DNA of 63,611 bases, filler included, from Welwitschia mirabilis (Eukaryota): NCBI GenBank assembly GCA_051453625.1. It is 6 parts of one record of this genome, joined end to end, with 100 filler letters (N's around TTAATTAATTAA, not from the genome) between each part and the next. Parts side by side here need not be neighbours in the genome. Positions count along the whole stretch, not along the records: positions 1 to 24,461 come from JBOZIK010000001.1; 5 more parts are not named here. The stretch is one strand, 5' to 3'. A program made the position numbers and the translations under genes. The number at the start of each line of letters is the position of its first letter. The first letter of the stretch is position 1. Shown piece after piece: positions 88 through 59,863 of this stretch. The notes beneath the pieces were generated by a model. It was not told the DNA's origin and ran no database searches. It worked only from the letters and a program-made list of their open reading frames with translations.

Positions 88-1640
88 ATGGAAATGACTT
101 TGAAAAATCCAATTAAAACAGCTAAAAAAACAAAATAAAAATGGACAAATAGGAACATAAAGAAAATTGTCTACTTACCCTAAATTCTAACCTAACAAAT
201 TCCTTTGGTAACAATCATAAAATCACTTAATAAAAAAATGCATGACAGTATGTAAAAAATTTATAAAGTACCATTTGAATAGGTAATGATTATGATGATG
301 TTAAGTATGTATAATGTTATCAAACAATGAATGATAAGATAAAAAGCTAAAGAAACATGAAGTTACTAGCTTACATATCAAAATAACACTATAATCTAGA
401 AAATTAGAATAATCATGTGGAAGTACTATCTGCAAATAAGGAGTCCAGAAGACAAGCAATGCCTTTGAAAATACAAGTGACATTACTAATCTTATAGTCT
501 CTAAGTAAAATTTTATTCTATCATGATGAGGGGAGTGCAACCACTATCAGAGGAGTAAGAACCCACATAACATGCCTAATTGACCCCCCAATGGAGTTCC
601 CACAGCTATCATATCACACTACCAAAGGCCCCTCTTGGGAAAATTTACCCTAGTGCACTTGTAGTAGGACATCATGATGACCATGTTTTTAGTTTAGATA
701 TGAAAGAGCATGATCTTTATTTATTGCCTTTCTTCTTCTNNNNNNNNNNNNNNNNNNNNNNNNNNNNNNNNNNNNNNNNNNNNNNNNNNNNNNNNNNNNN
801 NNNNNNNNNNNNNNNNNNNNNNNNNNNNNNNNNNNNNNNTGAAAATAAAAGAAAATGTAATAAAAAGAAAAAGGAAATGCTCAAAAACTTTGTAAATGTG
901 TCCACACTCAAGGAAAAAGAAGAATTAGAACTCATCAAATCATAGGAACTTATCAAAAAGAGAACAACAATCCTCCATGGAAATTAGAAAAACACATTAA
1001 CAAGAAACTAGGAAATGATGAAAAAATATGGTAAATGGCTTTGAAAAATCCAATAAAATAGCTAAAGAAAATCAAAATAAAAATGGATAATTACTTACCC
1101 TAAATTAGAACCTAAAAAATTTTCTTGGTAATGATTATAAAATCACTTGATAAAAGATGCATGATAGTATGTAAAAATTATAAAGTACCACTTAAATAGG
1201 TAATGATTATGATAATGTCAAAAGCTACTAAATAATAAGTTATAAGCTACCATATTAAAACAACATTAGAATCCACAAAATTAGAGTGATCATGTGAAAT
1301 CACTATAAATAAATATATAAAATATGCCTAAAAAACAAGCAAGGCCTTTGATGACACTAGGGACATCATTGATCTCACAGCCTTGAAGTAAAATTTATTC
1401 TAATATGATGAGAGGGATGCAATAATTGTCAAAGAAGTAATGACCCATATATCATGGCCAACTAACCCTTTAATGGAGTTCCCATAGCTATCATGTTGTA
1501 CTACCAAAGGTCCCTCTTGGGAAAATTTTTTCCAATGTTCTTACAGTAGGACATCATGATGATCATGTTTTTGAGATATAACATAAAAGAACATGGTAAC
1601 ATTCCAAGTACTTAGTCATGATGATCATGTTGTTTTTGCA
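88..1640 (-). repeat. ~900-950 bp diverged tandem duplication in the pol-to-3'LTR region of A (~88-720 vs ~1030-1590)
   Basis: ctttgaaaaatccaa..tacttaccctaaatt..taaagtacca..ggtaatgattatgat and ctaccaaagg.ccctcttgggaaaattt..gtaggacatcatgatga each occur twice. Confidence 0.85.
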
Positions 1641-1970
1641 TCTTCTTTTTTTTAATTTTTATTTTTTTATTTTTTTTTTTTGGTAACATTTCACATGATC
1701 AAGTACTTATAAGAATAAAAGTGAAGTCATGAAAAAATAACTAATTACTCAAACAATTAAAAGAGAACAAAATAATAAGGCATCTTCCTCCAAAATGAAG
1801 TTTATAAATAAACAAATGTTTGAAGATTGAACAAAGCTAATCTTATCATATGAAAATGCCCAAGTAAAATATTACTAATAATGAAAACTTTATAAGTAAA
1901 TACATAAGTCAAGTTAAAGATATTTAAGTGACAACATGATGTTTACCTAAGGAATGAATTAAGAAGAAAT

Positions 1971-4900
1971 TTAGATAATGACAAAAGGAAGGTCCTGCTT
2001 ATTAAGAGGGGCTTCCAAAACAAGTGCTTCTATCATGTTTAAGGTTTTGCCAGAAGATGACTCATAAATTTTTAACTTCTATTCATTAATTTTTGAATTT
2101 TTTTAGTATTTAAATCATAGATTTTAACTGATCCATTTGAATGTACTTTTTCTATAAGATAAGAACCTAACTGTTTAGAAGTCAACTTATTATGTAAAAG
2201 TTGTACTCAAGTGTTATACAAAAGGACATGTTAACTATGTTTAAATTGCTTATGAATAATATTTTTATCATGTCTGAACTTGGCTTGAGATTTATAAATG
2301 AGTTAATAATGTAAAACATGAGTATGTTTTTCATTAAATGATCAAGTTGGGCTAATCAAGTTCTAAGATTTTCATCCAAATCTACAAGGTTAAGTTGATG
2401 GTTGGATCGATAAGAGTTATAGTAAACATCAACTGACAAGACACAAACTTTTTTGTACACAAGTTCATATGGTGAGAAACCTAGAGAGATGCATCAAGTA
2501 GTATAGTAAGCTCAAAGAACATCATTAAGTTTAGAGAACCATGTTTTCTTATTAATAAAGACTAATTTTTGGAGGATCTTTTTAATTTTTCTATTTGCAT
2601 TTTTAACTTAGCATTAGCTTGAGAATGATAAGTATATGTAATTCTATGTTCAATGCCAATAGATAAAAGAAGTTTCCAAAAAAAGGTAATTAATAAAATA
2701 GTTTCTTAATTGCTAATGATGATTTATTAAAACCAAATCATTGAAAGATATGAGTTTGAACAAAATAGCAAATAGTTCAGACATCATTCTTGGTAGTAGA
2801 AACAGCTTTGACATACTTAGTAACATAATTAATGGCCACGAAGATGTAATTTTTATTATGAGAAAGTAGTTTAATAGGGCCTATAAAGTCAATCCCCTAA
2901 TAATCAAAAGGTTCATATTCAAGCATAGATTTAAGGGGTATATATTGAGAACAAGTTAGGTTACCATAACATTAACATGCATCACACCTTTCTAGAAAAG
3001 TTAAGTGAGTTTTTAAAAATGGTAGGCCAATAAAAACCAGAGTGAAGAATTTCAATGGTAGTCTTTTAATTACTAATTTATCCACCACATACTTCACTAT
3101 AGTAAAGTTTAAGGATTTCTAAGTTTTCCCACTCAGGCACACACTTATGCATGATTTGGTCTTTGCATCATTTATAAAGATGGGGTTTATTCCACTTATA
3201 ATTACCAATCCTATGGAAAAAATATTTTCATTGGTTATGGTCCCAATGCTAAGGGGTTTTCATAGTAACAAGGTAGTTCAAAATATCATCATACTAATGA
3301 GCAGGATGAATGAAAGAGATGGCATAAAGTTATTCCATAGTAAATAATTGTTCATCTAGAAAGAAGTTATTTTGGGAAGTTTATCATGAGAATAGGAAAG
3401 TCAAGATAAGTGATCTATAATGCTATTATGTCTTCTAGTTTTATCGATGATGGTAAGATTAAATTCTTTCATGAGAAGAATCCACTTAATAAGTCTAGCA
3501 CTAGAATCTTTTTTAGTCATAAGATAGCATATACCTATATGATGTATGTAAACATTAATGTAAAAGCCAAGAAAATAATGTTGAAGATGATCAAGGTAAA
3601 AGATGATGGTAAGCATTTCTCTCTTGGTAGTAGTATAGTTAGATTGGTCCTAGGACAAAATTTTACTAAGATAGAATGTGACTTTAAAATCACTTTCATA
3701 TTTTTGACTAATAATTCTATCCACAATAATATTGCTTGCATCACACATGAGTTCAAAATCTTTAGAAAAATTTTTTTTCTTAAGAGTATCAAATGTAAGT
3801 TAACATGCAACATTCCAATCAAATTTAGCATCTTTTTTGAGTAATGAGTAAAGGGGTTTACAAATTTTGGCATAATCATGAATAAAATAATGATATAAAC
3901 CAGCATGACCAAGAAATGACCTAACTTATTTGATATTGATTAAAGAACTAATGTTTTTAATGATATTAACTTTTGTAGGATCCATCTTAATTCCTTCCTT
4001 TAAAATGTGATGATCTAAAAAAATTCCATGATTGATAAGGGAAAAAATCTTTTCTCAACTCAAATGTTAGCCACTCTCTATACATCGATCCAAACATTTC
4101 TCTAATCTTTCTATGGTTTTTTCAAAGGTTTTACTAAAGATGGAGAAGTCATTTATGAAGATTTTAATAGAATCCTCTATCATGTCAGAAAAGATCTAGT
4201 TCATTACTCGTTCAAAAGTTTTAGGGGCACTACAAAGTTCAAAGGGCATTTGTCTAAAGGCAAAAATTCCAAAGGATGAGATAAAGGTTATTTTGGCTTG
4301 GTCTTTACTTGTTATACAAACTTGATTATAGCCACTATACCCATTAAGAAAATAAGTAGACATAACCTTGGATTCTATCAAATAATTAATTAAGAAAGGG
4401 TAAAGAGTAATGATCCTTTTTAGTGACCTCATTAAGTTTTCTAAAATCAATGCATGTTCTCCATTTTTCACTCTTTTTTGGAAGTACTGTTAAAGAGCTA
4501 ACCCACTCACTATCGAATATAGCATATATGATCCTGACATCTATAAGTTTAATAATTTCATCTTTAACTATTTACTTAAGGGATATGTTAAGCCTTCTTT
4601 GAGGTTGCTTAATAAGTTTAGCATTATCCTCAAGGTAAATTTTATGTTAAACTATGAAAAGAAGGATGGTAGCTAAGTCTTTATCAGTCCAAGCAAAGGA
4701 ATCTTCTTTAGAATTTAAGAGTGAGATTAAGTTTGATTCTTGTTAAAAGGTAAAAAGGTCACTTATTGTTAGATGTTTCTTTGGGTTGTTAGATAAAAAA
4801 TGTATTTCAAACCTTTAGGCAATTCCTTAAGTTCTAGGCTTAGGATTTTCATCTATTATCCCGTCTATCATGAGGATGACAAACATGGGATAATACTCTT

Positions 4901-7460
4901 CAAAAGGCTTTATAACAACTAAGCATGTTGGATTTTCTCCTAGTTTATGTATTCCTCATTCTTAGGCTTAAGATAATGTATTTCAGTTAGGTTATTAGAC
5001 AAAGTTGATTCTTGTTACATTATCAATTTCTTCTTAATTGATTGATGTTGTAAGAACAAGGTTGATTTAAGTTCTTCTTCTAAGTTAAAGTTATATCCTA
5101 TGTCCATTTTAGTAGCATCAAAAACTTGAATGGTAAACTCTTTATTGCCTATATGACATTCCATCATTCTAGTTCATGTATCAATAATACAGTGGGTAGT
5201 TGTACAAAGAGCTCTTCATAAAAGTAGTGGATAAACTCCATCATATTCTACCTCAATGATGATACATCTATGTGATAAAAATCTTTCTCAATTTAGATGA
5301 ATAGATCCTTGATAATTCCTAAGGGTTTTTTTAATTGAAGTATAAGCCAATTCCAAGATAATTTGTATTGGTTATATTCTATTTTCTAACCTAAGTATTT
5401 TACATATATGAAGAGCATGATGTTGATACTAGCTCTTATGTCAATTAAAGCTTTTCTAATTCTTTTATTTCCTTTCAAAATAACACTCATAGCTACTACT
5501 CTAGGGTCTTTAAATTTAGGACATTTTTTTATAACTAAGTTGGAAACAGATTGAGTAAGAAAAACTTTACTAGGAATAGTATGTTTTTGTTTTCTTCTTA
5601 CTAGGTTTTTCCACAACTTAGAATATTTAGGATTTTCTTGCAAGAGTTTCCAAAAAGGTAAGTTGATGTTTACCTCTTGCATTAAGTTCTTCAAGTATTT
5701 ATCAAAGGTGGGATTCACATTTAACCAATTAAGTTAAGGAGTAGATGATTTCTTCTTTTTATTTTCTTATGAAGAATTTTTAGTAGAGGTTTTATCATGT
5801 GATATTGATGGGAATTTATATGAGTAAAAAATTTCTAGATCATCTTATTCATTACTTTTTTCATTATTTTTGGAAGTTGAAACTTTATGGGTAGGAGGTG
5901 TTATATTATTTTTACTTCTTATTTTTACCTTTAAGTATCTCTTAATTTTATTTGGGTTGGGTAAAGGTTTAGATGCAAGAGCCTCTTATGATCTTTAATT
6001 AGTAAGCATCATTTGTTGAATCACATTTACTAAGTTTTTAATATTATTCTTAGTCTTTTTAATATTATTATTGGTCTTTTCTTTCATATTTTTTAATTCT
6101 TTTATGAAATCTCTAAGTAGATCATTTTGATTTGGTCGAAAATTAAAGTTATTTGGTTGGAAATTTGAATTTCTAAATCCATTCTCAAAAGGTTTCCATT
6201 GTGATTATCCACCTAATTTTTGTTAAAATTTAATTAGCTTTTAAAGATAGGTATTCTTTGGTTGAATGCACAAACTTCCTAAAAAAATCATCTCTTTACA
6301 AGTTAGCAACAAGGGATACTCTTTAGTTGGATGAGAGTTGTCTTCACAAATTTTACAAGTTTAAGTCTTTTTTCATCTTTTACTACCTTTTCATCAACTA
6401 TCAATTGAGTGTACTTCTCTAAACTGATAGTGAAATCCTTAATTAAGTTGGTTAAATCACTTATCTCTTCTTCCTTGTTATGTTTTACTTTCCTTTAGTA
6501 TTTTGTAATTTGACCTACAGTTTAAGTTTTCTTAGTGTATTTTGGTTAAGTTTGAGTTATCTCTACTAAAGTTTCTAACACATCCCATGCGTCTTCTAAG
6601 ACTAATTTCATTAAGTTGCTACAATAAGAAAAGTCTAGAAGTTGCTTAGTTTGATAACTCAATCCACTATATAAATAATCAACTAATTATTCTTTATGAA
6701 ATTCATCAATAGAGTTGGAATTGCTAGCTATGATAAAAAATTTATATGTTATGGAATAATCCTCATGAGTTTGTTATTAAAAGTTAGTAACTTCCTTTCT
6801 TCTTTTTCTTATAGAACTTTCACTCAAAAATCGTTTGATAAAAACCTCTTACACTTGAATCCATGATATAATACTTTTATGTGAAATGGTTTTAAGCTAA
6901 AGTTTTGCCATTCTTGTAAGTATAACTAGAAAAATAATCATGTAAGTATGATCATTAATACATTTCTTTTCATTTCTTAATATAAGAACAAGTTCTTCAA
7001 TGTCAGCTAGATGTTGGAAAGGGTCTTTCTAATGTTTCCCTAAACAAGTTGGATAGGCACTCAAATTTCTTAATTTTACATCATCACCAAGAGGTAAATC
7101 AAAGGGATTTTGAATTTCACGTTTTCTATTAGTGATGAAATATCTAACAATAAGATTTGCATTTGAAGTATAAGTTTCTATTATGATTGGCATACTAGTG
7201 AAGTAACTTGATTTTGTTTTTATGATGATTTTGACATATTTAGAAAGAAATAACATGATCTACTTCTATACTACAATTTTCTTTTGTAAAATCTGATTCT
7301 AAAATAATAGAAATAGAGAAATCTTCTTTTTTAATTCTTGGAATTTGCATATCTAAGATGTGCTTACCTGGATTTTGCTTGAAGTTGAATAATCCTTCTC
7401 TAATATTTCTTCAATCAAGTTCTACTCTCTCTGATATTTCTTATTTCTACTAGAATTCAT
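1971..7460 (-). pseudogene. gag-pol pseudogene of element A (gag ~7460-5720, protease ~5500-5100, RT ~4650-3950, RNase H ~3900-3400, integrase ~3330-1971)
   Basis: Fragments KALIDIRASINIM (protease), SEWVSSLTVLPKKSEKWRTCIDFRKLNEVTKKDHY and YFLNGYSGYNQV..FAFRQMPFELCSAPKTFERVM (RT), KKDSSARLIKWILLMKEFNLTIIDK (RNase H). Many stops and frameshifts. Confidence 0.9.
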
Positions 7461-7909
7461 CATATCCTTACATATTCAAACAGTAAACAAAAAAAGAAAT
7501 AAAAAGTAACTAACTATTATCCACCTTATTATGGGAATAACTAGAGGGATGACAATCACAATTGTAGAAAACCAAACTAAGATAAAAATTGCCAAAAGTA
7601 AAAAATTAGACTATCATCTAGGCTATCATGGGAATGATAGAGGAGATGACAATATTTTTATTACTATTTTATAGATAGAAAGAAAATTTGTAGAAAAGAA
7701 AATAAATTGAAAATTCAAAATTATTATTCCTAGTATCATGGGAACAACAAATAGAATAACATTGATCTTTAAAACTATAGAAAATGAAAATTGATAAAAT
7801 AAACTTACTAAACTATAAATAAAAGTATAGAACTATTTCAAATAAATAATCTAAACTAAAATTCAAGGTACTTATTTGGATAATGACAATCCTCTAGCTT
7901 CTTGCAGCC

Positions 7910-7928
7910 TTCCCTAGTAGTGGTGCCA
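7910..7928 (-). promoter_or_regulatory. Primer-binding site of element A, tRNA-Asp type
   Basis: Minus strand TGGCACCACTACTAGGGAA directly after the LTR end (..GCAGCA). It is a deaminated form of the Athila PBS TGGCGCCGTTGCCGGGGA. Confidence 0.75.
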
Positions 7929-7931
7929 AAA

Positions 7932-9165: not shown

Positions 9166-9459
9166 ATCTAAAAAATAGAAAGTAATGTATAAATCACATA
9201 AAAATAATGATAACTCAAATAACTCCCCAAATAAAGAAGAGGAAGAGACTTAAAAAAAAAAAACNNNNNNNNNNNNNNNNNNNNNNNNNNNNNNNNNNNN
9301 NNNNNNNNNNNNNNNNNNNNNNNNNNNNNNNNNNNNNNNNNNNNNNNNNNNNNNNNNNNNNNNNNNNNNNNNNNNNNNNNNNNNNNNNNNNNNNNNNNNN
9401 NNNNNNNNNNNNNNNNNNNNNNNNNNNNNNNNNNNNNNNNNNNNNNNNNNNNNNNNNNN

Positions 9460-14183: not shown

Positions 14184-14779
14184 GCTCTAAAATTAGATAA
14201 TAAAAAGACATGTCATTTCTTTTTTCATTTCTTTAATGTTTATTTGGTTTATTAGTTTACTAAATTGTTAATGTAAATTAAGTGATTATGAAATTACAAG
14301 TTTACTTAATAAGTCTTCAATAGGAAATTATGCATCATCTTCATTATGGAGAATGAGGTAATACATTCCATTATAGAAGTACCTTCTGAGTATTTGTTTG
14401 AATGGGGAAAATAATCGTATAGGTCCTTACTCCTTTGATAGTGGTTGCACTCTTCTCATTATGGTCAATTTAAGTTGTGAAAGATAAAAGGTGGAGGAAT
14501 AGTTATGTTCTAGAAGTCATCTAAGACATAGATAGTTACTAAAGATAGAATCTCATCACAACTGAATAATTATTAAATTCTATTTAATCTAAAAAACTTT
14601 AAAATTTTAGAATTAATTTATATGAGCTTAACAATTTACTAAATTATTTAGCTTAAATTTCATTTGGTAGAATATATGTTCTTATGATAAATAAAATAGT
14701 AAAAAAATAAGTTTTAAAAAAAAAATCTTAAACTTTATTAAATAAAGTAATTTATTAAATTCTCTTACAAAAAAGGGAA

Positions 14780-18900: not shown

Positions 18901-18916
18901 TAACCCACTCTTCATA

Positions 18917-21900
18917 TAGGAAGATTTATTGAAATATTCATAGATGATTTTTCAACTTTTGGAAATAATTTTGGTGAGTTACTTGACATATTGAAAAGAG
19001 TCTTAAAGAGATGTAAAGAAAAACATCTAAAACTTAGATGGTTGAAAAGTCATATTATGATGATAAAAGGCATAGTACTAGAACATAAAATATTTTAAAA
19101 ATCGATTAAGAAAAATGAATAAAAAATTAAAACTATAAAGGCATTTTACTCCCAACCATGATAAAGGACTTAAGATTTTTCTTATAGCATGTTAAATATT
19201 ATAGAACATTTATATCTAACTATGGTAAAATTGATAAACCTTTAAGTAATCTTTTATAGAAGGATGTAAAATATAATTAGACAAATGAATGTCAAAGTCC
19301 TTACCAAATTTTAAAAGATAAAATTTTGTCAGCACCTATTTTACAAGGGCATAATTGGATAAGACCATTTTACATTATGATGGATGCATCTAATCATGCT
19401 ATGGAAGTATTTTTAGGGCAAAAAGATGAAAATAATAAACCATATGTTATTGCTTATTTAGTAAGAAATGAAAATCAACTCAACAAAATTACATAGTAAT
19501 TGAGAAAAAGTTGTTAGTAGTAGCAGTGGTATTATAGAAGTTTAAGCATTATATTTTAAATTACAAAGTAAAAGTTCATACAAACCAAAGTGATATTAGA
19601 TTTTTAATGAACAAAAAAGAAGCTATTTCATGAATTATAAAATGGATACTATTAATGCAAGAATTTTACTTAAAAATTATTAATAGAAGAGGGATAGAAA
19701 ATGTAGTAGTAGATCACCTCTCAAAATGGAAATGTTCTAATAAAGAGAAAATAAACATAAGAGATGAATCTCCAAACGAACATCTTTTTCAAGTAAAAAC
19801 CAATCCATGTTATGCAAATATAACCAACTTTATTATGAGTAAAAAATTACCATCTTTTATGAATTATTATGAAAGAAAAAAATTATTAAAAGAATCTAAA
19901 GACTAAATATGACATGATAAGATGTTATTTAGAAGATGTAAAGATCATTTTATTAGAATATGTGTAGAAGAAAAATTACAAAAAGATATTCTAAAGGAAG
20001 CCTATAAGGAAGAAGAGGAAGAATTATGATGCAATAATAATCAGAATAAAAATTCTCCAAAGATTCAAATGCTTATGTCTAGATTTGTGATAAGTATCAA
20101 AGAGAATGAGCATTTAACTAGATATTAGAAATGCAACAACAATGGATTCAATCAATTAAATCTTTTGATATTTGGAGCATAGATTTTGTTAAACTTATCA
20201 ATCCTTCCTCTTATAAATAAAGATATATTTTAATGTATATTGATTACTTTACTAAATGGGTTGAGGCTGAGGTTGTATCTTATTTTTCTTTCAAAATCAT
20301 AGTTAATGTTTTACTTAGGAATATTATCTATTATTTTAAATCCCCTTAAAGTCTTATATCTGATAAAGGAAGTTGTTTTAGTAGTGAAGTATTCAAGAAA
20401 CTCTTCATCAAACATGAAATCCACTACAAATTTTCTATTGTCTATCATCTTTATTTAATAACTAGGCTAAAGTAACTAATAGAGAATTCAATAGAATGCT
20501 AATAAAGGTCATAAATAGTAAGAAAACAAATTAGGCTAAAAAATTAAATGAAGCTTTATGGGCTTACAGAATAACTTGAAACTATAGTATAGTGTTTACA
20601 ACATATGAATTAGTTTATGAAAAAAGAGCTATTTTGTTAATTGAACTTAGAATAAAAATGTTTAAATTCACTAAATCACTAAAGTGTAATATGGAAATAT
20701 CTCAAGTAGAATAAATATAAAATATGAATATTTTACATGAAAACAAAAAAATAAAATCTCTTTTTTATAAAGAACTTAAACAACAAAAACCTAAAATATA
20801 TCATGATAATAAAATTATAAAGACTAATTTTAATATAGAATATTTTGTATTAATATATGATCCTAAAAGATTCATTTAAAATAGAAATATGAATATAAGT
20901 AGCTAGAACCCTATAACATAATAAAAATATTGGGAAATAAAGCCATAGAGTTATATGATCTTGATGAAAAAGTAACCTACCACATTAATGAAAAGAGAAT
21001 AAGAATGTATCATGATCATAAATCTATGCTATATTATTTATGAAACCCTTATAGGATGGAAAGAATGCTTTCACTCTACTTATAAAATAAATGTTTTTAG
21101 ACTAGATAATAAGGGATATGTCATTTTGTTAAAGTTTATTTAAACTATTAATTCACTAAATTGTTTAAAGTAAATTTAATGATTGTGAAACAAGAAGCTA
21201 ACTTGTAAGTATTCAACATGAGATTGTGCATTATCCTCATTAAGAGAATTAAGAAAACACATTTCATCAGATGGTAGAATATCCTTTGATTAAGGAAAAA
21301 AGACAAAAAACCATAATATTCTACTAAAAATGTACTAGGTAAATTATTCCTAAGAGACGCCTTTGGTAGTACAATATGGCAACTATAAGAGCTTCATTAA
21401 CAGGATTAGTTAGTCATGATCTAGATAAAAAATAAAAAGAAAGGAATCTTATGATTTCTTACTCCTTTAATAATGCTTGCACTCTCTCATTGTGGTTAAG
21501 AAATTAAGTTGAAAAAAATAAAAATTTAAGAAAGAGTTATGTCCTATGAGCCATCTAAGACACAACTAGTTACCAAGATTACAACAATATATTGCAACTT
21601 ACAAAAAAAAAAAAAAGAAAGGAAAAAAAAAAAAGAATTTTATTCTAGAATGAAATGTGAATCTAAATATTTTGAATTTAGTAGGATACACAATTATTAG
21701 ATTCTATTTTAGTAAAGAGTAAACTTCCTAGTTTAAAAATCATTTCATGTTATCTTAGCAATTTGATAAATTGCTTAGTATGTATTCCTTTTAATGAAAT
21801 TGATATGGCCAGAAGAAAATAAAAGTAGTTATAAGATAACCTTATTTAAAATAAAATAACAATTAGAAACTTTATTAGATAAGGAATATATTATTTTATT

Positions 21901-23487: not shown

Positions 23488-23626
23488 NNNNNNNNNNNNN
23501 NNNNNNNNNNNNNNNNNNNNNNNNNNNNNNNNNNNNNNNNNNNNNNNNNNNNNNNNNNNNNNNNNNNNNNNNNNNNNNNNNNNNNNNTGGCATGTTAGAT
23601 GTTATAAAAGATTTATATCTAACAGT

Positions 23627-23689
23627 TGTGGAGCCAAATTGACCTATTTAATACACTTATGAAGTACATTTTTAGATCTTATTGATAAG
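23627..23689 (+). repeat. Start of a D-family LTR, interrupted by the Copia LTR
   Basis: aaattgacctatttaatacacttatg..ttattgat matches 38915-38970. Preceded by a scrap of B/C-type RT (GHVRCYKRFISN). Confidence 0.7.
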
Positions 23690-24505: not shown

Positions 24506-24517
24506 TTAATTAATTAA
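24506..24517. other. Artificial contig linker TTAATTAATTAA (also 33068-33079, 50855-50866, 56864-56875, 59908-59919)
   Basis: Identical 12-mer centred in 100-bp N spacers; gives stops in all six frames. Confidence 0.95.
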
Positions 24518-24561
24518 NNNNNNNNNNNNNNNNNNNNNNNNNNNNNNNNNNNNNNNNNNNN

Positions 24562-35908: not shown

Positions 35909-38907
35909 ATGGATAGATTAAACACCAATACAACTTGCAATGAATATTTAAAAGCAATTATGAATGATATCACTATTAATCTATCCTTTTGGAAAGTTAT
36001 AAAAGACAACCCAAGTACAATAAAATTTGGAAGGACTTAGTAAGAAGAAAATAAAAGAGGAAACTTTCAAGTGAAGTATTCATTGCACAATTCCTTTTCA
36101 ACTAGTTTTTTAAAAATTTCCTAAGTATAAAGATCCAATGGAAGCCACTATTTTTATTTTTTTTAAAGAAAATAAGAAAATGAAGAAAGCCTTAATAGAC
36201 ATAGGGGCAAGTGTAAACATTATTCCTTTGCACATTTGTAAAAAGTTTGGATTAGAAGGAAGAATTAGACAGTGTTGAAATTGGCTAATGCATTAATGAA
36301 AAAACTTATAAGAGTAATCAAAGATTTAGTGATTCAAATTTCAAAAGCTTTCTACCCTTTAGATATGGTCATTATTAAGGTTAAACATAATGGTGGATAC
36401 CCTCTACTTTCATAAAGAGCCTTTTGTGTAACACCCTATTATGTCATTAATACTCACACAAGAATGATGAAGTGTCATATAGGTAATAAAAATTTTAGTA
36501 TTAGAGTATTTGATGCCTTTGAAAAAGACATGGGAGAAAAATTAGACATAGAAGAAAAAGTTAAGTCATCCATGTTAGTTTAACATCATTGTTTAGAAGA
36601 AAGGCTCCTTTCATTACATAACTTAATCTTATTTTATGATGAATAGGAATTATCTACTATTTTTAAATATTTAAACTCCTATAATCCTTGCAATATTAAT
36701 CAAGATCATTTAAACCACTCTTTCAATGATGATTTTCATGAGGACTATGAATCCATACTTGATCATAATCTCCAACATTTAAGATTCATTAAAAACATTT
36801 TATATCAAGATCAGTTTTCTACAACTATGAATGATGAAAATGATCTTCAACTCAAACAATTACCCTATGATTTGAAATACCTTTTTATAAATAACAATTC
36901 TAATAAACCGTTGATCATTAGTTATCAACTTCATCCTTCCTAAGAAAAAGCCTTAATTCAACTTTTTACTTCAAAATTAGAAGCTTTTGCTTGAACTCAT
37001 CGAGTTATTAGTGCTATTCCTTCTTATATGATTTAATACAAATTTACCTATATGACAATGTTAAATCCATTAAAAAACCTTAAAGAAGACTTAATCCTAC
37101 CATTCAAAAAGTAGTAAAGAACAAAATCATTAAACCTATGGACACAGGTCAATTCATGCTTTTGAATAATACTCAAGTACATCTTATACATAACAAGTTT
37201 ACCACTAAATGGTTTGATCATTATAATGTGAAAAGGATACATTCCAATGACTCTGTTAAGATCTCTAACCTTCAAACTCAAGAGATCAAAAAAGTAAATG
37301 GACAAAGGTTAAAACTTTATACATCTCCATATGATTGTTTTTATACCTTGAACATGATAAAAACAATTAACTTGGAATATCCTCTTTGCAAAAAGGAAGA
37401 TCTCCCCTTGGCCATCTACTAAATTTTTTCTTAGTCTTATTCCTTAATTTTAATTATGATACTACTTGATCATATTTAACTTGATTTATGTTTGACTCCC
37501 ATAGGTATTATCATGATTAAGTAATTCTTTACATTAGGTTTTCATGTAATAAAGATTAGATTTAGTTAATCTTAAGATATTCCAATATCTACAATCAATC
37601 TCCTTTGTTACTTTATGGAAAAATATCAATTATGTTAATTCAATGCTTATTTTTATCCATATACCTTGTTACTCCATCATTCTAATGATTAATTTATGCT
37701 TCCAAAATGGGATTCTAAGTCAATAAAAAAAGGGAAAAATGCAAAGCAAGAAGGAAATATGAAAATAAAAAATACGAAGGAAAAATAAAGAGAAAAATAA
37801 AAATTAATTACCCTCTTGTAATTATACCATGATGTACTACCACAAGCATATTAGGGCAAAATTTCTTGAAAGGGGCCTTTGGCTATATAATATGTATAGT
37901 TGTGGAAACTCCACTATAGGATTAGTTAGCCATAATCTAGCTTTGGCTTATGGGTCTTTATTTTCCCTTATCATGATGAATGGTATTATTCAACACTCCA
38001 TTAACTAAAAACTTCCATCACTCTAAGGCATAGACTTCATGAACATGTGAGTGTATTGATCACTGGATGATATCAAAGTATTCTAGTTATCACAGCTAAA
38101 GAGGGATTGAATTATAGTCCAAACATGACTTGATACCTTGTTAAAAATAATCATTAGATATTGTCATCATTACTACCCTTTTGAATGGTACTCTATGGTG
38201 TTTTACATTGAATCATACATTTCTATATTAAGTATCTTTATAACCTTTACTAAGAAATTTTACTAAGTTTGAATTTTGGACAAATAGTTAATCTTCTTTA
38301 TGTCCTATCTTTTCTATTTTTCTTTTTGTTTTATCTTAGTTTGTTGGTTTTCCTTCTCAAAGTTATTTTTATCATCTTTTCCAAAATAATGCTTAGGACT
38401 TTATCATTTTCTGATTTACTTCTTGTATTTTTTATCACTCGATTATTATGCATAAAATCAATTTTACCTATACCTTGATCATCTTTTAGCATGATAGCAT
38501 TGATGCTTTTCTTTTCTTAATAATCTTTCTTTTTTATAACCTCTCATATTACTTAAACTTATAATAATGAAATCTTACCCTAGTTTACCTTCTCTTTATG
38601 GTTTTCATAACCTAAAATGACTTGCTCATTTATTTTTGGGGGTGAGGGGTAGACACATATATTACATGATTTGTGAGCCAAAATTCTTCACCTACTTTTA
38701 CTAGGCATAAATATATGCAATGATGTTGAGATAATTATTGATCATATACATCAACTTTACCTATGTTTTTTAATAGATATGATGTATTTCACATGTTATA
38801 CTCTTAATTCTAATGATATTCATGTTTTAAATTTCTTTTTATTAGTTAGCTCACAATGTGTTATCTCTTACTTTATGAAGGACTAACAAATGCTAAGTGG
38901 AGGCTTA

Positions 38908-41003: not shown

Positions 41004-42244
41004 TGTTACTTTATGTATTTATACAAATGATTACACTCTTAAGAACATCTTGTCATTTACAAATAAATATAAATTTTGCATAATACAATATACTAATATA
41101 GATGGGAGTAATCCAAATGTCATATTATTGTTGAAGGCATAGGAGAAAAGAGTGAGAATTAATTTTAAGAATGACTTAATAGCAGAAATTAATAATAATG
41201 TAGAAAATGATAATACAAACACACTTATAAAAATGAATGTAAATCTAAGTAAGTGCAACTTCCATCCGATTACTAAATTATCCTATCATAGAGATCAATC
41301 CTATATAATCTAGATTAATTAAGAAATGTTGTCACTAGATCGAGATCAACCTAAGCTATCAGGTATATCAAATAGATATAAAACTATGTAAAGTTAATCT
41401 AGGAAAGAATATAATGCGCCTAAACTAATAATGCTCAACCTTAACAAAGGTTATCCTCATAATTTATATTACTAAATAAGATATCATGGAATCAAAAGCA
41501 ACATAAACTATAAGGGATATATACATAATAAGTAGCCACATCTCAATGGAAGATGCATAGCCCAACGTCCGTGTTACAAAGAAGTTACATCTCAATGGAG
41601 GATGCATAGCCCAAGACTAAGGAAGACATCTCTCTGAAATTACAATGGATGAATCTCTGGTTCTTTGATCTCCTATCATGAGAATTTTTGGTGCAAACAA
41701 AGACAAGTAGGAGTTGAAGATGAAGTAAATATTTATTAACTAAGATAGACTCACAAACAAATAAGACAAACAAGCATAGGCACAACTCTAATAACCATGC
41801 AAGAAACACAGAAACAAATGGTTAAAGTTAAGTGAAGTTTGATGAAGCATTATTTTAGATGTCATCCTACTAGTCATTCGAATGATACAAGAGATGATGC
41901 CACCTCATAAGAATTCCATATCATCTACTAGATTGACTCTAATCAACATCCTTATTGGCTTAACTATTTTATCGTCCATTCAATTGTTCAAACGATGAGG
42001 TGGATAATATGATTTTTACAACTTTTCATGTAATGCATTAGCCTAAATGCTTACAAGAATTTTACTTTAAAATAGGAAATATTGTAAATTGCTTCAAATG
42101 CTATAAAATGTAATGAAGATTACATGTTTTTGTATCATTCATCTTAGCTCTTTATTACCCTATAAATCTAGCATAAACCTATCTAATAACCTACAAAAAT
42201 ACTCAAAATACCCTATCAAATACACCCAAGTTGGTAGTGCAACA
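41004..42244 (-). repeat. 3' LTR of element E
   Basis: TG..CA termini (tgttac..gcaaca), adjacent PPT, similarity to 51810-52051 and 22518-23487. Confidence 0.85.
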
Positions 42245-44030: not shown

Positions 44031-45840
44031 ATATGCAAAAATATTACACAAGATCTAATGGAGATAGCTTAATATGTCGCGTGGATGCTCAAAACAATCC
44101 CAAAATAAATTAAAAAATATAAAAAATTATGAAAATATGTCATACCCCTTCTCAAAGTGTTAATATGTCTTATATCTAGTCCTATGAATAAAATTTTAAA
44201 ATGCACGAAAAGTGTAAAAACGGTGTTTTTAATGGGCCCCACATAAGATGAAAATTTAATGTGCTCAAATGAAAAATATAATCTACTAGAATTATAGAAC
44301 ACATTAAACTCATCAATTTATCCTAAAGAACCACTATGTTTTGACTTACAGTTTGCAAGAAATTAAGTGTGAAAGGTAGAAATCTAAGTTTATCTCGTAA
44401 AATGTACAATTAATCATATCTTTTAAAATACTTGGCAAAAATTAAATCTATAATTTTCTAAATGAATAATGCAAAAAACTAATTAACATACATTAAAACT
44501 ATGCATTAAAAGGCTAACAAATAGAAGAAAAAATTCAAAAAGATAAGGGAAAAAAGCAAACCTCATCTCAAAAAATCGTAAAAATTTAAAGAATCTATGA
44601 GTGAATCGCACAAGGATAAGATCTAACAAGTTGGCAAGGACTAGGGGACTATTGTCTGTCAAAGGAATGGATGAAAATGATAAAGAAATAAAGAAAAAAT
44701 GAGGAAAATATTTTGGGCTATGATTTTATCACACTGTTGTCTGGTTGCTTCATCTAGACAACAGCCTTAGGATGACTCTCAAAAAAAAAATCTAACTATC
44801 ATTTGCCTATGTCATTTGAACGATTAGGTGGATGATGGAAATTTCAAAAATTTTCTTAAAAATTAACATATCAATCAAGAAAGTTAAGCTCAAATATTAT
44901 CATGAAGGTATTAGAATTTATCAGAAAGTTTGAAAAAATAGGGAATGGTAAAAAGTTGTGATAAATCAAGATGATGTAAAAAACTTAAAACAAATGAAAA
45001 ATAGAGCTAAAGGAAATATTCTAATTAGGTTGAAACCTAATAATGAAATTAAATAAATGTGCCCAAACTGAAAAATAAATAAGACAAGCTATAGAACTCC
45101 AAAAGATATAAGAAATCTCATAAAAGATATGAAACATAAAAGATTATCTGTTTAATTAAAATGCTAAAAGAAAATGATATGTTATGAATTAACAACAAGA
45201 AAACTACTAAATGATAAGGTCCTATGTGAAGATAAGAAAATGTGGAAATGACATCAAAATAACAAACTGGAAAACCAAGGAAAATCATAATGAAAATGAA
45301 CATAAGGAACATAAAAAAGATTGCTTATCTATCCTAAATTATAAATTAGCAAAACCCCATGGAAGGAATTATAAAGCTACCTAAGTGAAAAAGGCATAAT
45401 AAAATATATTAACTCCATAGAGTTCCACTCGTAAAGGTAGTGATTATGATGATACCAAAAAATCAAGTGCCTAGAAAAATGAATGAAAAGATCAAAAGCT
45501 TATCAAAAATGAACTCATCTATTCACATCCTAAAACACACCTAAATCCTCTAAAGTGAAATATTCATGTGGAAATACTAAGAGTTTATAAAATAAGCAAT
45601 GTATATAATGACATCAGAAATGCCACTAGTCTCATAGCTTCAAAGTTTATTACAAATTTTTCTATGATGAGGGGAATGCAACCCCAGTTAAAGAAATAAG
45701 GATCTGTGAAGCATGGTCAACTAACCTCCTAGTGGAGTTTTCATAGCTACCAATACTACTAATTATTCCTTTTGGAAATATTTATCCTAATGTGATAGGA
45801 CATTATGGTAACCATGTATTTTTTAAAGCNNNNNNNNNNN

Positions 45841-45918
<78 letters not shown>
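45841..45918. repeat. Compound (TC)n(TA)n microsatellite
   Basis: Directly visible next to a 11-N gap. Confidence 0.95.
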
Positions 45919-51377: not shown

Positions 51378-52064
51378 GCTCAGTTTTTATGTTCAGTGTG
51401 TAATTCGGATGATCTGTCTAGATAAGAAAAAATTAAAAAAACTAGTAAAATGAAAAATGCAGAAAAATAAAAGCATGAAATAGTAGAAACTGAAAACTTT
51501 AAAATAGACTGTCATCCTCTTGAGTCATCTAGATGACAGAGGGGGTGATAGGAAAATCCTAATTTTTAAGAAAAGTAAAAAACTTAAGGCACATAAGCTA
51601 TCATCACCATGCATCTTCTAGACGATGAAGCATATGACAGAGCATTTCTTTAGAATGCAAAATAAAAACTACAGAAAGAAAAACCTAAGCTACTATTATT
51701 ATATGTACAATGCTACTGCAGGTAAATATCTGAACTAATATTAAAACCCTCACTTGAGCAGCAACAATCCTCAAACTCTAAGTAGTTTCCCTCGGCAATG
51801 GTACCAAGATGTTATTGTGCTTATTTGTGTAAATAATTACACTCTTACAAAGATCGTATCATTTACAAATAAATATAGATTTTGCACAGCATGACACACT
51901 AAGGCGCAAGAGAGAAGAGTGAGAGTCAATTTCAAAAATAAAACACTTATATATATTAATAGCAAAAATAAATATAATGGAGAAAATGATAATGCAAATA
52001 TACTTATGTAAATGAATGCAAATCTAAGCTAAGTGCAATCCCTTATTACTACACTACAAGAGAT

Positions 52065-56919: not shown

Positions 56920-59863
56920 GCCTCTCTATATGCATGGTATCAGAAAACTCTCTTATCTCTGAAGCATAATATGAATCATGCTTATCTGTAATCCATCTGA
57001 ACCATAAATCTATCAACCTCTAATCTATCTCTAGCTCTATGCAGTGCATGAATCCTCTAAAATATCTTTCTATACAAGTACTAGCTATCTGAATAATCAA
57101 AGATCATCCATGTCGAGTTGGCGAATGTGTAGGCTCTGCACACTCTATCTCAGACTCGACCAAAGGGCTTACCTCCTATAGTATAGGCTTAATTATAGCC
57201 TCTGCCTATCTAGCTCCATGTGTACATGACCTACTCAATTGAAAACACAAAATCGTCATGCGAAAATAGATAGATAAGTCAAATCATTACATGGATGCAT
57301 AATAACAACCCCTAAAATCAATGAAAAACTAGGAAAAATACTTAAAATATGTCCCGTCCCCCCTAAAAAATTAATGCATCTTAAATTGCCTAAACGTAAG
57401 AGAAAAATGGAGAGAAATGGGAAAAGTATGAAAATTGGATGTTTAGTAGGCCCCACGTGAAGTGAAAATTTAAAGTGCTCAAATAAAAATCTAATCTAGA
57501 AAAGTCATAGAACACATCAATCTGGTCAATTTTTCCTAAAAGACCATTATGATTTGATCTATGATTTACGAGAAAATAATTGCAAAAAGTAAAAACCTAA
57601 GAATACCTCGTAACACACAAAAATGATCATAAATCAAAAAAATACATGATGAAAATCAAATCCATAAGTCCCAAAATGAAGAGCATGAAAAATGAATTAT
57701 ACACATGAAAACTTCGCATCGAAAAACTAAAAAACAAGAGAAAAAATAAATAATAGGAGGAGAGCGAAACATACTTCATTTTTACAAATTTGATAAAATC
57801 TTACAAATCTAGTAACAAAATCAAATGGGACAAGTCTTAAGATGTTTGTACTAGCCAGAGGGACCATCGTCTCTCAGAAGAATGGATGAAAATGATAAAA
57901 AAATAAGTAGAAATAAAGAAAAAGGGTTTAGGTCATGGTCTTATCGCACTGTCATCCAGTCGCATTGTCTAGATGACAGCCCTAAGATAACTATCAAAAA
58001 AAATCAAACCGTCATCCACCACAGTGGCGTCTGGATGGCCAGGTAGACAATAAGGCATCAAAAAGCTTTTCAAAAAGAAAAAGATTAGCCATGAAAGTTA
58101 GGCTCAGATATGATCATTTAAATGATGATTCTGAAAATAAAAAGACTAAAAGACAGAAAATCACACAAAAAACTAGGAAAAACTAGGAAAAACCAAAGAA
58201 AATAGACTATTTAAGTTGAAATCTGCAATTAAAAACTATATGAATGTGCCCAAATAGAACATGAAAACATGGTATTCTTAAAATTTGATAACCTATAAGG
58301 GAATTTATAAAGAGTCAGCAAAATTTTCAATGCATTTTTAGAAAAATGTTTTAGTATGATTTAATAGAAAAAAATACTAAATGATTAAAGTCCTATAAAG
58401 GAATAAAAAAATGCAAAAATTACTTTGAAACCCTAAACTCAAAGACTAAAGAAAATCAAAGTGAAAATGAACACAAGGAATAAGGAGGATATTATTTACC
58501 TATCCTAAGTGCTAACCTAGTAAACTCCCAAGGAAAACATTATAACATCACCTGAGTAAATATGCATAACAAAATGTATTAACTTCATAAAGTTCATTTG
58601 AAAAGGTAGTGGTTGTGGCAATAAGCAAAGCTTCACGTGTATAGAGCAATAAATGTTAAAACCAAAAGTTACTTAGAAATGAACTCACCTACTTTCATCC
58701 CACAAACTCATCTGAATCTCTATAAGTGAAATGATTAAGTGAAAATANNNNNNNNNNNNNNNNNNNNNNNNNNNNNNNNNNNNNNNNNNNNNNNNNNNNN
58801 NNNNNNNNNNNNNNNNNNNNNNNNNNNNNNNNNNNNNNNNNNNNNNNNNNNNNNNNNNNNNNNNNNNNNNNNNNNNNNNNNNNNNNNNNNNNNNNNNNNN
58901 NNNNNNNNNNNNNNNNNNNNNNNNNNNNNNNNNNNNNNNNNNNNNNNNNNNNNNNNNNNNNNNNNNNNNNNNNNNNNNNNNNNNNNNNNNNNNNNNNNNN
59001 NNNNNNNNNNNNNNNNNNNNNNNNNNNNNNNNNNNNNNNNNNNNNNNNNNNNNNNNNNNNNNNNNNNNNNNNNNNNNNNNNNNNNNNNNNNNNNNNNNNN
59101 NNNNNNNNNNNNNNNNNNNNNNNNNNNNNNNNNNNNNNNNNNNNNNNNNNNNNNNNNNNNNNNNNNNNNNNNNNNNNNNNNNNNNNNNNNNNNNNNNNNN
59201 NNNNNNNNNNNNNNNNNNNNNNNNNNNNNNNNNNNNNNNNNNNNNNNNNNNNNNNNNNNNNNNNNNNNNNNNNNNNNNNNNNNNNNNNNNNNNNNNNNNN
59301 NNNNNNNNNNNNNNNNNNNNNNNNNNNNNNNNNNNNNNNNNNNNNNNNNNNNNNNTTTTCCATAATGAGGGAAGTGCAACCACTATCAGAGGAGTAAGGA
59401 CTCATGAAGCATGACTTACTGATCCCACAATAGAGTTCCCATAACTATCAATACTACTAAAGGTTCCTTTCAAAAATATTTATCCCAGTGTGGTAGAACA
59501 TCATGGTAACCATGTATTTTTCTTTAAAGCATAAAATCAATTACTCATGGTCATTATTTTTTTTTTAAACTTCCCATGTGATCAAACACTCAAAAAAGAC
59601 AAAGACAGAATATAACACTCCCAAATAATCCAAGATTTTAACACCGTTTAAAAAAATACAAGAAAGTAAGGCATCTTCCTTTAAATGAAGTCCATAGACA
59701 TGGGAATGTCTCAAGATTGAGTGAATCCAATCTTACCACCTGTAAATGCCCAAGTATGAAATTAATCATGAAACTTCATAAAGTAATACACAAATCAAGT
59801 TTAAAAGATAATCAGGTAATATCATAATATTTAACCAAAGGAGTAGGCTAAGAAAAAACTTAG
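56920..59863 (-). mobile_element. Element F: pol-to-accessory-ORF region of an E-family Athila-like element, bounded by linker gaps
   Basis: Collinear with 43710-46235 (e.g. gggccccac..gaaaattt, aaggaatggatgaaaatgataaa, aaggcatctt). Confidence 0.85.

Follow-up and report, generated by a model that had tools for sequence, protein, structure and literature searches.

A conserved non-coding block downstream of integrase in degraded Ty3/gypsy elements of Welwitschia mirabilis, possibly marking the polypurine tract and the start of the LTR

The window analysed here is a 63,611-nucleotide stretch (filler included) of the Welwitschia mirabilis assembly GCA_051453625.1, composed of six parts of one record joined end to end. 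A block of about 170 nt is present in the window in exactly seven copies, BLAST and a profile search each giving the same places, and these are the seven places already listed in a first-pass annotation of this DNA. With positions 521-690 as the query, BLASTN found 1405-1572 (78.6%), 59361-59519 (74.6%) and 45664-45821 (66.7%) on the same strand, as well as 37828-37913, 21312-21378 together with 21456-21484, and 14422-14463 (88%, partial) on the opposite strand. The search by nhmmer --max with a profile of the seven aligned copies returned the same seven places with E values from 1.5e-73 to 1.6e-24 and nothing further in the window below E 0.7, except for an antisense self-match within one of the copies, A2 (E 0.002).

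The copies are named after the elements they belong to. Copy A1 (519..688, minus strand) is the least decayed one, with 62 of 67 majority G/C positions kept and a GC content of 0.45, and copy A2 (1401..1570, minus strand) is located about 400 nt past the projected integrase end of element A. The duplication in A, previously noted as a duplicated copy of the block, is in fact part of a larger tandem repeat, 630 nt or more in length (82-712 corresponding to 1022-1595, 70.8%), which spans a 100-N gap. Copies B and C represent a second family. What remains of the partial copy B (14401..14537, plus strand) is the 3' third of the module (14416-14466) and the conserved extension downstream of it, the 5' two thirds being deleted in comparison with copy C (21310..21497, plus strand), which itself carries a 28-nt A-rich insertion. 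Copy D (37825..37978, plus strand) is the sole copy with an open frame, a 66-codon ORF at 37808-38005. Copy E (45660..45819, minus strand) was delimited with BLASTN and nhmmer, and copy F (59358..59517, minus strand) is directly followed by an N gap.

All seven copies lie in the sense orientation to degraded Ty3/gypsy elements, none being found outside a retrotransposon, and start 200-415 nt past the last integrase homology detected by TBLASTN with plant Gypsy polyproteins, which bears out the placement given in the first-pass annotation. The integrase remnants upstream of the copies extend to 2114 in A (minus strand), to 13733 in B and to 20867 in C (both plus strand), from 37132 to 37326 in D (plus strand) and to 46322 in E (minus strand); F is a 2.9-kb contig piece homologous to the integrase-tail region of E.

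Judging from their sequences, the elements are probably best explained as an envelope-less ATHILA-like Ty3/gypsy lineage. The ATHILA-type primer-binding site (PBS) TGGCGCCGTTGCC (tRNA-Asp/Asn) is found, behind a short AT-rich spacer and with transitions allowed, at all three readable 5' LTR junctions, namely those of E (51794..51806, minus strand, three transitions), A (7916-7928) and D2 (about 40163-40175), elements B and C having no 5' junction in the window. Matches to the canonical tRNA-Met PBS at two or fewer mismatches numbered three against 2.7 expected, which is the chance level. A domain scan of 150 of the 188 stop-free ORFs of at least 50 aa detected only RNase H of the RT_RNaseH type, decay limiting what such a scan makes visible. 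Pfam found no families in the read-through translations (stops replaced with X) of the post-integrase sense frames of E, D and C or of the antisense frames of E and D, and these negatives are weak as the gag-protease control stretch of A, read in the sense direction, was also blank. An ATHILA-specific ORF downstream of pol is present in only about a quarter of the elements of that lineage.

The LTR 3' ends in the window read TAACA, TTACA or CAGCA. The 3' end of the 3' LTR of E (41004..41258, minus strand) pairs with 51810-52038 at 76-87% identity, beyond which the PBS follows, and the match between the 3' region of E and its 5' side spans only about 230-250 nt, at the LTR end. Three LTR copies lose homology 0.23-1.34 kb from their 3' ends, that of the 5' LTR of A stopping at the N gap at 9265, that of a further element, G, at the N gap at 23488, and that of the 5' LTR of E at a break at 52038; the 5' LTR of D is lost in gaps. 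The DNA past the N gap of A shows no significant match to the distal region of E. A borderline match of 10401-10751 to 44926-45279 (z 4.4 against simple shuffles) had no counterpart in A1, A2, D or F. The E/F homology ends at 43708/56922, which was considered as a possible boundary but proved to be an assembly linker in F.

The block is a GC-richer island, as it was originally described, with a GC content of 0.30-0.45 compared to 0.18-0.29 in the 300-nt flanks and 0.28 in the window. Its nucleotide identity is 59-71% between the two families (about 66%) and 63-78% within them (about 70%), whereas pol DNA is 55-61% identical between the families and about 70% within. The surroundings, said in the first-pass annotation to align poorly, gave no BLAST match at all between B/C and A/D/E/F in the post-integrase DNA outside the module. 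The size of about 170 nt holds for the core of the block only: after a short gap, the conserved stretch resumes for about 60 nt more in both families, the nhmmer matches extending over 451-698, 1334-1580, 45592-45823, 21310-21571, 37825-38060 and 14416-14537. This downstream extension, delimited by nhmmer and by the alignment, occupies 451..518 (minus strand) next to A1 and 1334-1400, 45592-45659, 21498-21571, 37979-38060 and 14467-14537 next to the other copies.

Transitions account for 526 of the 723 substitutions (73%) among the copies, which are dead. Indels of 6, 4, 1, 1 and 28 nt separate them and five of the six full copies have stops in all six frames, so the earlier argument from indels against coding is upheld. 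The whole block is evenly conserved, with no pattern of scattered short motifs, and the primary sequence is kept in predicted loops as well as in stems. At the module ends there is a 9-bp inverted repeat, which is perfect over 9 nt in A1, 91% over 11 nt in D and retained in the alignment. Since such a non-coding, sense-oriented, element-bound block is kept better than pol between the families, a cis-acting role is its natural reading as far as sequence comparison goes, and the block most likely serves these elements as a signal in replication or expression rather than being a new RNA gene.

As to which signal it is, we tentatively favor the conserved polypurine-tract (PPT)/LTR-start block of the lineage, the PPT/LTR junction being a known site of lineage-wide conservation. 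A cluster of purine- and A-rich tracts, revealed by run counts, is located upstream of A2 (1638..1693, minus strand), with comparable clusters at 727-739 (A1), 21292-21309 (C), 37725-37797 (D), about 45841-45873 (E, a (GA)n run cut by 11 N) and 59518-59575 (F). In A, D, E and F, 13 purine runs of at least 8 nt were counted in the 1,661 nt between the integrase end and the module versus six in the 9,739 nt downstream, giving a density just before the module about 12 times that after it, and the last tracts abut the module. With B and C added, the upstream count is 20 in 2,770 nt; in these two elements purine runs also occur downstream of the module (seven in 1,857 nt). The runs lie 0-100 nt upstream of A1, A2, C, D, E and F, a clean abutment on TG not being seen in every copy. 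As purines stay purines under transitions, a decayed PPT should remain visible.

A candidate LTR start, TGTAAT, is located at 37817..37824 (plus strand), 8 nt before copy D, and is regarded as such because it is the inverted complement of ATTACA at 40156, the 3' end of the LTR of D. The module edge TGGTTAC in E and F matches the GTAACA LTR ends of E and G with one extra base, so the two LTR termini vary between D and E/F in matching fashion; no clear inverted repeat was seen at the LTR termini of A. Between the module of D and the LTR end (40156) with its PBS there is no further purine run of at least 10 nt. In C, the homology with B ends about 1.1-1.2 kb past the module, where the LTR end of another element begins, and in other genomic copies the upstream homology breaks off at the 5' edge of the module, with joints 1560->2004 and 1570->1911. 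The upstream purine cluster and the inverted repeats of the LTR ends, neither of which was noticed in the first pass, point to a PPT/LTR junction and not to a free-standing RNA module.

The window has no intact 5' LTR, which puts this reading beyond proof there, and that the LTR begins at the block is what we infer. None of the seven copies is found in a 5' LTR or a solo LTR, where an LTR start would also be expected, and the three remaining LTR copies, cut 0.23-1.34 kb from their 3' ends, speak neither for nor against the model. Several features argue against it. The LTR of E would be about 4.8 kb long; if the LTR of E instead began at 42781, where TG follows a short purine run, it would have an ordinary length of 1.8 kb and the module would be internal; and known junction motifs measure 20-60 nt compared to the 170-240 nt of the block. 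In both families there is also a purine run with TGCCTTA about 215 nt upstream of the block, which is itself a candidate for the true PPT and LTR start, but words like it are also found within coding DNA (12071, 34460), and the run may belong to the end of the pol ORF.

If the LTR does start here, the last polypurine tract would prime plus-strand DNA at the edge of the block, the first bases of which would form the LTR end recognized by integrase. In the genomic RNA the remainder would belong to the 3' untranslated part; once reverse-transcribed, it would stand at the upstream end of U3, which bears the promoter. The PPT/LTR junction may be defined in part by the 9-bp terminal inverted repeat and the small hairpins, a role proposed in Sireviruses for the inverted repeat around that junction, and both families would retain the block through its action in cis. 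Every step of this mechanism is to be taken as conditional.

Similar arrangements have been described in other plant elements, the likeness being one of description. No part of the Sirevirus genome is as conserved as the PPT region; the PPT occurs in several copies no more than 0.5 kb from the LTR, and the inverted repeat that surrounds the PPT/LTR junction has been proposed to play a role there (PMC2829016). As in the present elements, the region is thus the most conserved part of vastly divergent elements, non-coding, placed at the end of the internal domain with polypurine tracts clustered within 0.5 kb upstream of the 3' LTR, and accompanied by a junction-linked inverted repeat. Sireviruses, however, belong to the copia superfamily and the present elements to gypsy; the Sirevirus motif consists of an 8-bp PPT and arms of about 28 bp enclosing it (PMC2829016), whereas the present block spans 170-240 nt and its 9-bp arms surround roughly the first 150 nt that follow the tracts. 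ATHILA elements have the same type of PBS (seen here with transitions) and highly conserved, lineage-specific junctions of the internal domain with the LTR, including the 3' one, that are kept across hosts (bioRxiv 10.64898/2026.03.20.713144). The same preprint gives ATHILAfinder seeds of 20-21 bp and, for Brassicaceae, LTRs of 1-2 kb ending in TATCA, in contrast to the three LTR endings listed above and an LTR of 1.2-4.8 kb under the model. Diaspora, an envelope-less member of the Athila/Calypso lineage, resembles the present elements in its tRNA-Asp PBS, in having no ORF after pol and in the short distance of 128 bp from the pol stop to a PPT abutting the LTR; it differs in its legume host, and the portion of its description drawn on here mentions no conserved LTR-start block (PMC1142308).

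A second explanation, possible though doubtful, is that the block is a structured RNA element in its own right, situated in the 3' UTR of the genomic RNA: a domain of about 150 nt with a 9-bp closing stem and three or four hairpins, whose partner would be either Gag (for packaging) or a host factor, which would act in export, stability or 3'-end handling much as with the retroviral constitutive transport element. The constitutive transport element and similar 3' UTR RNA elements are about 150-170 nt long, lie between the last coding region and the RNA end and have internal symmetry. The block is alike in size, position and internal symmetry, and that element would be its working model if the RNA reading were right. 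The fuller version, in which a folded 3' UTR RNA domain of an ATHILA-like lineage docks a host factor for unspliced-RNA export, stability or packaging, both families depending on the same host protein, is unlikely. We know of no such folded element in plant LTR retrotransposons, and a full-text literature search listed no paper describing the block or an RNA element of this kind in them.

Support for a fold is mixed. The RNAalifold consensus of the six full copies has an energy of -14.35 kcal/mol versus -6.05 +/- 2.24 for column shuffles (z -3.7), which reached it in 0 of 300 and 0 of 150 cases, and the sense strand folds better than the antisense one (-9.98, z -2.4). However, such a z is not rare here, since one of six control tests, on the antisense strand of the region before the purine tracts, gave -3.66; the structure was also picked from the same six decayed sequences that were used to score it. 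The least decayed copy folds no better than its shuffles (-46.6 against -49.25 +/- 3.99 kcal/mol, z +0.66; antisense z -0.27), and a signal on both strands also fits plain DNA inverted repeats. In the consensus structure 88.8% of 233 cells pair, both-side changes are found in 11 of 39 pairs compared to 5.8 +/- 2.1 when column pairs whose majority letters are complementary are drawn at random (a fraction of 0.02 reach this number), and the covariation score is reached by 2 of 500 of the tool's own shuffles. Against this, transitions in dead copies convert G-C pairs to G-U and A-U even when selection plays no part. The stems drawn in the first-pass annotation have real complementarity (85.8% of 183 cells pair versus 29-64% with slid partners), but their covariation score (0.254 versus 0.215) is reached by 40 of 500 shuffles and is not significant. 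The even conservation of the block and its terminal inverted repeat agree with a folded domain. RNA reads from less decayed copies, taken from sequencing runs under the same species label, pile up on it to a depth of about 10, mostly about 0-3 elsewhere, which is nevertheless expected of any conserved segment at 80% likeness, and the integrase and RNase H segments also peak. The cis-acting part of the original proposal of a cis-acting RNA therefore stands as the natural reading, and its RNA part is weakened by the fold of the best copy and by the control.

The original remark that the block was not recognised as a described family agrees with the search of the whole window with Rfam covariance models, ribozymes (hammerhead, twister and HDV-like among them), tRNA, 5S, snRNA and SRP RNA included, which gave no match at the gathering score. 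In positions 1-2000, with both A copies, only four matches were obtained (E 1.1-8.8), none on the module proper. The suggestion of a ribozyme is not borne out, as no ribozyme family matched at the gathering score in the window or at E 10 in 1-2000. ARAGORN found no tRNA gene in the window, which speaks against a tRNA or tRNA-derived SINE. A 34-letter pattern of the best-kept stretch had no match among metagenome and viral contigs; eight metagenome matches to a 19-base core were attributed to chance, coming from GC-rich contigs (52-63%) that align over no more than the 19 bases (nhmmer E 0.05-0.5).

It is improbable that the block is an enhancer or promoter of U3, dense in host transcription-factor sites and serving two families that use the same host factors. 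This would require the block to be inside the LTR, and its place at or near the LTR start, its GC content amid AT-rich DNA and the conservation of predicted loops as much as stems are all compatible with that; on the other hand, it would be far from any likely start site in an LTR of 2-5 kb, and no position could be assigned to a TATA box or a transcription start, the TATA-like word that follows A1 being seemingly a decay product. Quite improbable, too, is foreign DNA acquired by transfer, either a MITE-like inverted-repeat element or a recombination patch, the likeness then reflecting recent common origin instead of constraint. The block is bounded by the terminal inverted repeat, the likeness between the families is sharp at the 5' edge and fades about 60 nt past the 3' end, and identity between families nearly equals that within them. 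Yet no target-site duplication could be read beside the repeat in any of the six full copies, all seven copies have the same position and orientation in the element and none stands alone, both families have a second conserved stretch beyond the block, and two independent insertions at one relative site are unlikely. Coding of the whole block is largely refuted, and even a short coding piece, either an ORF of about 20 codons opening with an ATG cluster or the first exon of a 3' ORF, is very improbable: three in-frame ATGs do stand at the block start in A1, A2, E and F, their frame reaches the same TAG stop in these four of the six full copies with a sole earlier indel of 6 nt, and D is open over 66 codons, but the stops in all frames count against it, the indels of 4, 1, 1 and 28 nt follow the shared TAG, the Pfam searches, a weak test, were blank, and the D ORF has no credible homologue among 1.84 billion representatives, its only two matches, a protein with a 53-residue tandem repeat and one with TPR-like repeats, being due to the repeats and judged spurious.

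LTR retrotransposons make up most of many plant genomes, and to our knowledge little has been established about which cis-acting signals they carry apart from the LTR tips, the polypurine tract and the primer-binding site. That two families keep a block of 170-240 nt better than reverse transcriptase marks a strong common requirement. In a very decayed, AT-rich genome it would serve as a sharp lineage-specific annotation seed, comparable to the junction motifs already in use for SIRE and ATHILA elements. Should it prove to be only the conserved start of the LTR, it would be a useful but ordinary annotation feature, and should it be a folded RNA recruiting a host factor, it would provide an experimental handle on how plants deal with the RNA of their retroelements.

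The block, a GC-richer non-coding island of about 170 nt, occurs seven times in the window: blastn of 521-690 returned six other places, where the first-pass annotation had located them, and a profile of the seven aligned copies recovered the same seven with nhmmer --max. They lie at 519-688 and 1401-1570 (minus strand; A1 and A2, both in element A), 45660-45819 (minus, E), 59358-59517 (minus, F), 37825-37978 (plus, D), 21310-21497 (plus, C) and, as a partial copy, 14401-14466 (plus, B). No eighth copy was found in the window with nhmmer --max, the next hit being an antisense self-match in A2 (E 0.002), followed by hits with E of at least 0.7. The geometry described earlier was right, all copies being sense to their element and starting about 200-415 nt past the projected end of integrase homology (tblastn). 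In both families the conserved stretch extends about 60 nt past a short variable gap after the block.

Rfam gave no match at gathering score over the whole window and, at E up to 10 over positions 1-2000 with two copies inside, nothing on the module proper, which rules out a known RNA family; ARAGORN finds no tRNA. Protein coding is rejected by stops in all six frames in five of the six full copies and by indels of 6, 4, 1, 1 and 28 nt, the argument from indels having been made from the sequence alone. The lone open frame, in D (66 codons), had two protein matches among 1.84 billion representatives, a 53-residue tandem-repeat protein and a protein with TPR-like repeats, both aligned via the repeats. 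Pfam found no families in read-through translations (stops as X) of the post-integrase DNA (sense for E, D and C, antisense for E and D), a weak negative, as a gag-protease control was also missed. Pattern scans of metagenome and viral contigs returned nothing real for the block, and full-text literature searching turned up no description of it.

Of 188 stop-free ORFs of at least 50 aa, the longest 150 were searched with Pfam, which detected Gypsy-type RT/RNase H pieces and one Copia element near 25.1-26.6 kb. The relatives of the best ORF (12339-12830) are plant Gypsy polyproteins with 40-47% identity, and tblastn with six of them mapped five degraded elements: A (minus, gag 7028 to integrase 2114), B (plus, 11378-13733), the 5'-truncated C (plus, 18916-20867), D (plus, gag 33770-34189 and integrase tail 37132-37326) and E (minus, 49758-46322). 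F, a contig piece of 2.9 kb, matches E from its integrase-tail region through the module and beyond. A/D/E/F and B/C are distinct families, with pol DNA identity of 55.6-61.2% between them (segments of at least 170 nt; about 35-40% at the protein level) versus 69.7% (A/E) and 71.5% (B/C) within.

The window is very AT-rich (GC 0.28 overall, 0.17-0.32 in 2-kb steps) and contains 3,095 N in 20 runs, five of which are identical linkers of 44 N, TTAATTAATTAA and 44 N (24462-24561, 33024-33123, 50811-50910, 56820-56919 and 59864-59963). These are artificial stop-in-all-frames joins between contigs, so adjacency across them, such as that of F and E's 5' side, is a statement of the scaffold and not of the sequence. 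The Copia element lies within 23692-32552, with integrase at 25128, RVT_2 at 26104-26637, and LTR-like repeats at 23692-24461 and 28336-28975; its 3' part recurs, as a second partial copy, at 29076-32552. Most of E's 5' LTR is replaced by 52038-56819, which carries a transposase-associated domain (56366-56572, E 6e-8) and weak PPR-like and cyclophilin-like fragments, and may be a DNA transposon with gene pieces. Element D contains a G run (35833-35861, minus; 19 G, A, 5 G), odd for DNA of 28% GC. Tandem duplications of 300-630 nt with 71-82% identity occur inside D (39124-39424 and 39438-39738; 34044-34544 and 34738-35244) and A (82-712 and 1022-1595, doubling the block). The region 37825-41004 comprises an LTR-length stretch, an LTR end at 40156, a primer-binding site (PBS) and a second copy of D's leader (40432-41004, matching 33124-33661 at 79-82%), and is an element-LTR-element tandem with one shared LTR, interrupted at 41004 by the tail of E, the two lying tail to tail.

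In the block, C shares 58.9-71.1% identity (mean 66%) with the other five full copies, and the five A/D/E/F copies share 62.9-78.1% (mean 70%) among themselves; the third that is left in B matches F at 90.5% (42 nt) and A1 at 80% (55 nt). The between-family loss is thus about 4 points for the block versus about 12 for pol. Within a family the block is kept no better than its flanks (65-78%), as neutral decay after insertion predicts, so the constraint acted on active ancestors. BLAST found no match between the families' post-integrase DNA outside the block and its short extension. Transitions make up 526 of the 723 pairwise substitutions in the block (73%), CpG is nearly absent (0-1 per copy), and majority G/C positions kept per copy range from 38 of 65 to 62 of 67.

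Sequence mapping of 841-3840 at 80% likeness, in two DNA and two RNA runs with the same species label, matched 74,518 and 62,695 contig pieces in the DNA runs, which makes the family extremely abundant. Summed word depth was 18,000-36,000 in the block bins (1441-1640), 5,000-10,000 in the flanking bins (1241-1440 and 1741-1840), 4,000-95,000 in the integrase and RNase H bins, and highest of the 3 kb in the integrase tail (1841-1940; 132,000 and 96,000). By contig depth the block is kept about as well as coding DNA and is not the best-kept non-coding part. The region around the integrase ORF end (1841-1940) also lies at 59648-59863, 45972-46227 and 37419-37591, and its alignment gave an antisense-strand fold z of -3.66. 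The RNA runs yielded 102 and 20 matched reads, nearly all less than 90% alike; in the first run depth is greatest at the block, about 10, and at an integrase segment, about 8. Loose ends of these reads hold CpG-bearing, less decayed block versions, so some less decayed block-carrying copies are transcribed, which has no bearing on function.

Three 5' LTR ends could be read, in E (51810), in A (7932) and in the element behind D (40156), and 3-6 AT-rich bases separate each of them from a PBS. With C-to-T and G-to-A decay allowed, the PBS at all three junctions is TGGCGCCGTTGCC, the tRNA-Asp/Asn type printed for ATHILA (bioRxiv 10.64898/2026.03.20.713144). A match to 51810-52038 (76-87%) places E's 3' LTR end at 41004. 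LTR pairs cannot fix the LTR start: N gaps interrupt A's 5' LTR 1.3 kb from its end and a fourth LTR copy (G, ending near 22518) after 1.0 kb, homology in E's 5' LTR stops after 0.23 kb, and D's 5' LTR disappears into gaps. A 96-nt piece of A's 5' LTR just ahead of the N gap (9166-9261) recurs, unexplained, 1.2 kb on at 10404-10496 (79%), and 10401-10751 has a borderline match to E at 44926-45279.

Polypurine tracts (PPTs) outlast transition decay. In A/D/E/F, 13 purine runs of at least 8 nt lie in the 1,661 nt from integrase to block versus 6 in the 9,739 nt after it, and all runs of at least 10 nt are upstream, the last ones 0-100 nt away; the contrast is weaker in B/C (7 in 1,109 nt upstream versus 7 in 1,857 nt downstream). 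In D, TGTAAT stands 8 nt ahead of the block and the LTR ends in ...ATTACA, while in E and F the block's edge reads TGGTTAC and ...GTAACA closes the LTRs of E and G, so that block-edge word and LTR end change together between D and E/F; A does not fit. From the block, D continues for 2.3 kb to an LTR end and PBS without any further candidate tract, and C/B homology stops about 1.1-1.2 kb past the block, at another element's LTR end. In other genomic copies (contigs of the two DNA runs) the block's 5' edge is joined to differing upstream sequence (1560 to 2004; 1570 to 1911 with 34 other letters), which makes it a homology break point. Purine tracts, LTR termini, continuity and break point indirectly indicate the block itself as the LTR start, a reading to which we give roughly even probability. 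Against it, E's LTR would have to be 4.8 kb, and no block copy was seen in a 5' or solo LTR, though the window could have shown none. An ordinary 1.8-kb LTR would result if it began at AAGGGAAG followed by TG at 42781, leaving the block internal to the element, upstream of the LTR, which we consider a less likely but serious alternative. Whether it starts the LTR or precedes it, the block lies within the 3' untranslated part of the genomic RNA. A second short motif common to both families, a purine run then TGCCTTA, stands about 215-250 nt upstream of the block (minus, 1780-1791, 46038-46049 and 59671-59682; plus, 21058-21068 and 14149-14159; TGCTTTC in C, TACTTTC in B) and is either an upstream PPT or the tail of the pol ORF.

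That the block acts as a folded RNA, as first proposed, is possible but unproven. The complementarity is real: the proposed stems pair in 85.8% of 183 cells and the RNAalifold structure in 88.8% of 233, versus 29-64% for slid partners, and A1 has a perfect 9-bp terminal inverted repeat. Signs of selection on pairing are mixed. At -14.35 kcal/mol the consensus lies below column shuffles (about -6 ± 2.3; z -3.4 and -3.7), which never came as low (0 of 300 and 0 of 150), and 11 of 39 pairs changed on both sides, where random column pairs with complementary majority letters give 5.8 ± 2.1 (fraction 0.02), but this structure was chosen on the same six sequences on which it was scored. The antisense strand scores too, at z -2.4, a z of -3.66, close to the consensus value, came up in one of six control tests, and covariation in the originally proposed stems is not significant (40 of 500 shuffles reach the score). 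The least decayed copy, A1, folds no better than its own shuffles (z +0.66), and transition decay yields G-U and A-U from G-C without selection, an effect greatest where decay has gone furthest; six dead copies do not decide whether the block folds.

Conserved non-coding junctions are described, in the portions of the sources used, for two plant LTR-retrotransposon lineages, the Sireviruses (PMC2829016) and ATHILA (bioRxiv 10.64898/2026.03.20.713144). In Sireviruses conservation across the genome is highest around the PPT, several PPT copies occur less than 0.5 kb from the LTR, and the junction is enclosed by an inverted repeat proposed to aid correct primer formation (PMC2829016); the two LTR-internal junctions of ATHILA are conserved throughout Brassicaceae and have been used as 20-21-bp search seeds (bioRxiv 10.64898/2026.03.20.713144). 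Diaspora, whose pol ends 128 bp ahead of the PPT, shows that the ATHILA-like lineage includes envelope-less members (PMC1142308), and large non-coding regions are common in OTA elements (PMC6317226). By description the block resembles the Sirevirus and ATHILA junctions in kind; it is longer than their motifs (170-240 nt), and its inverted repeat surrounds the presumed LTR start and not the PPT, whereas the Sirevirus repeat surrounds the junction. The block is a real and well observed cis feature, conserved across the lineage, that sits at or beside the PPT/LTR boundary of ATHILA-like elements; its most likely link is to plus-strand priming, to LTR-end recognition or to U3 function.
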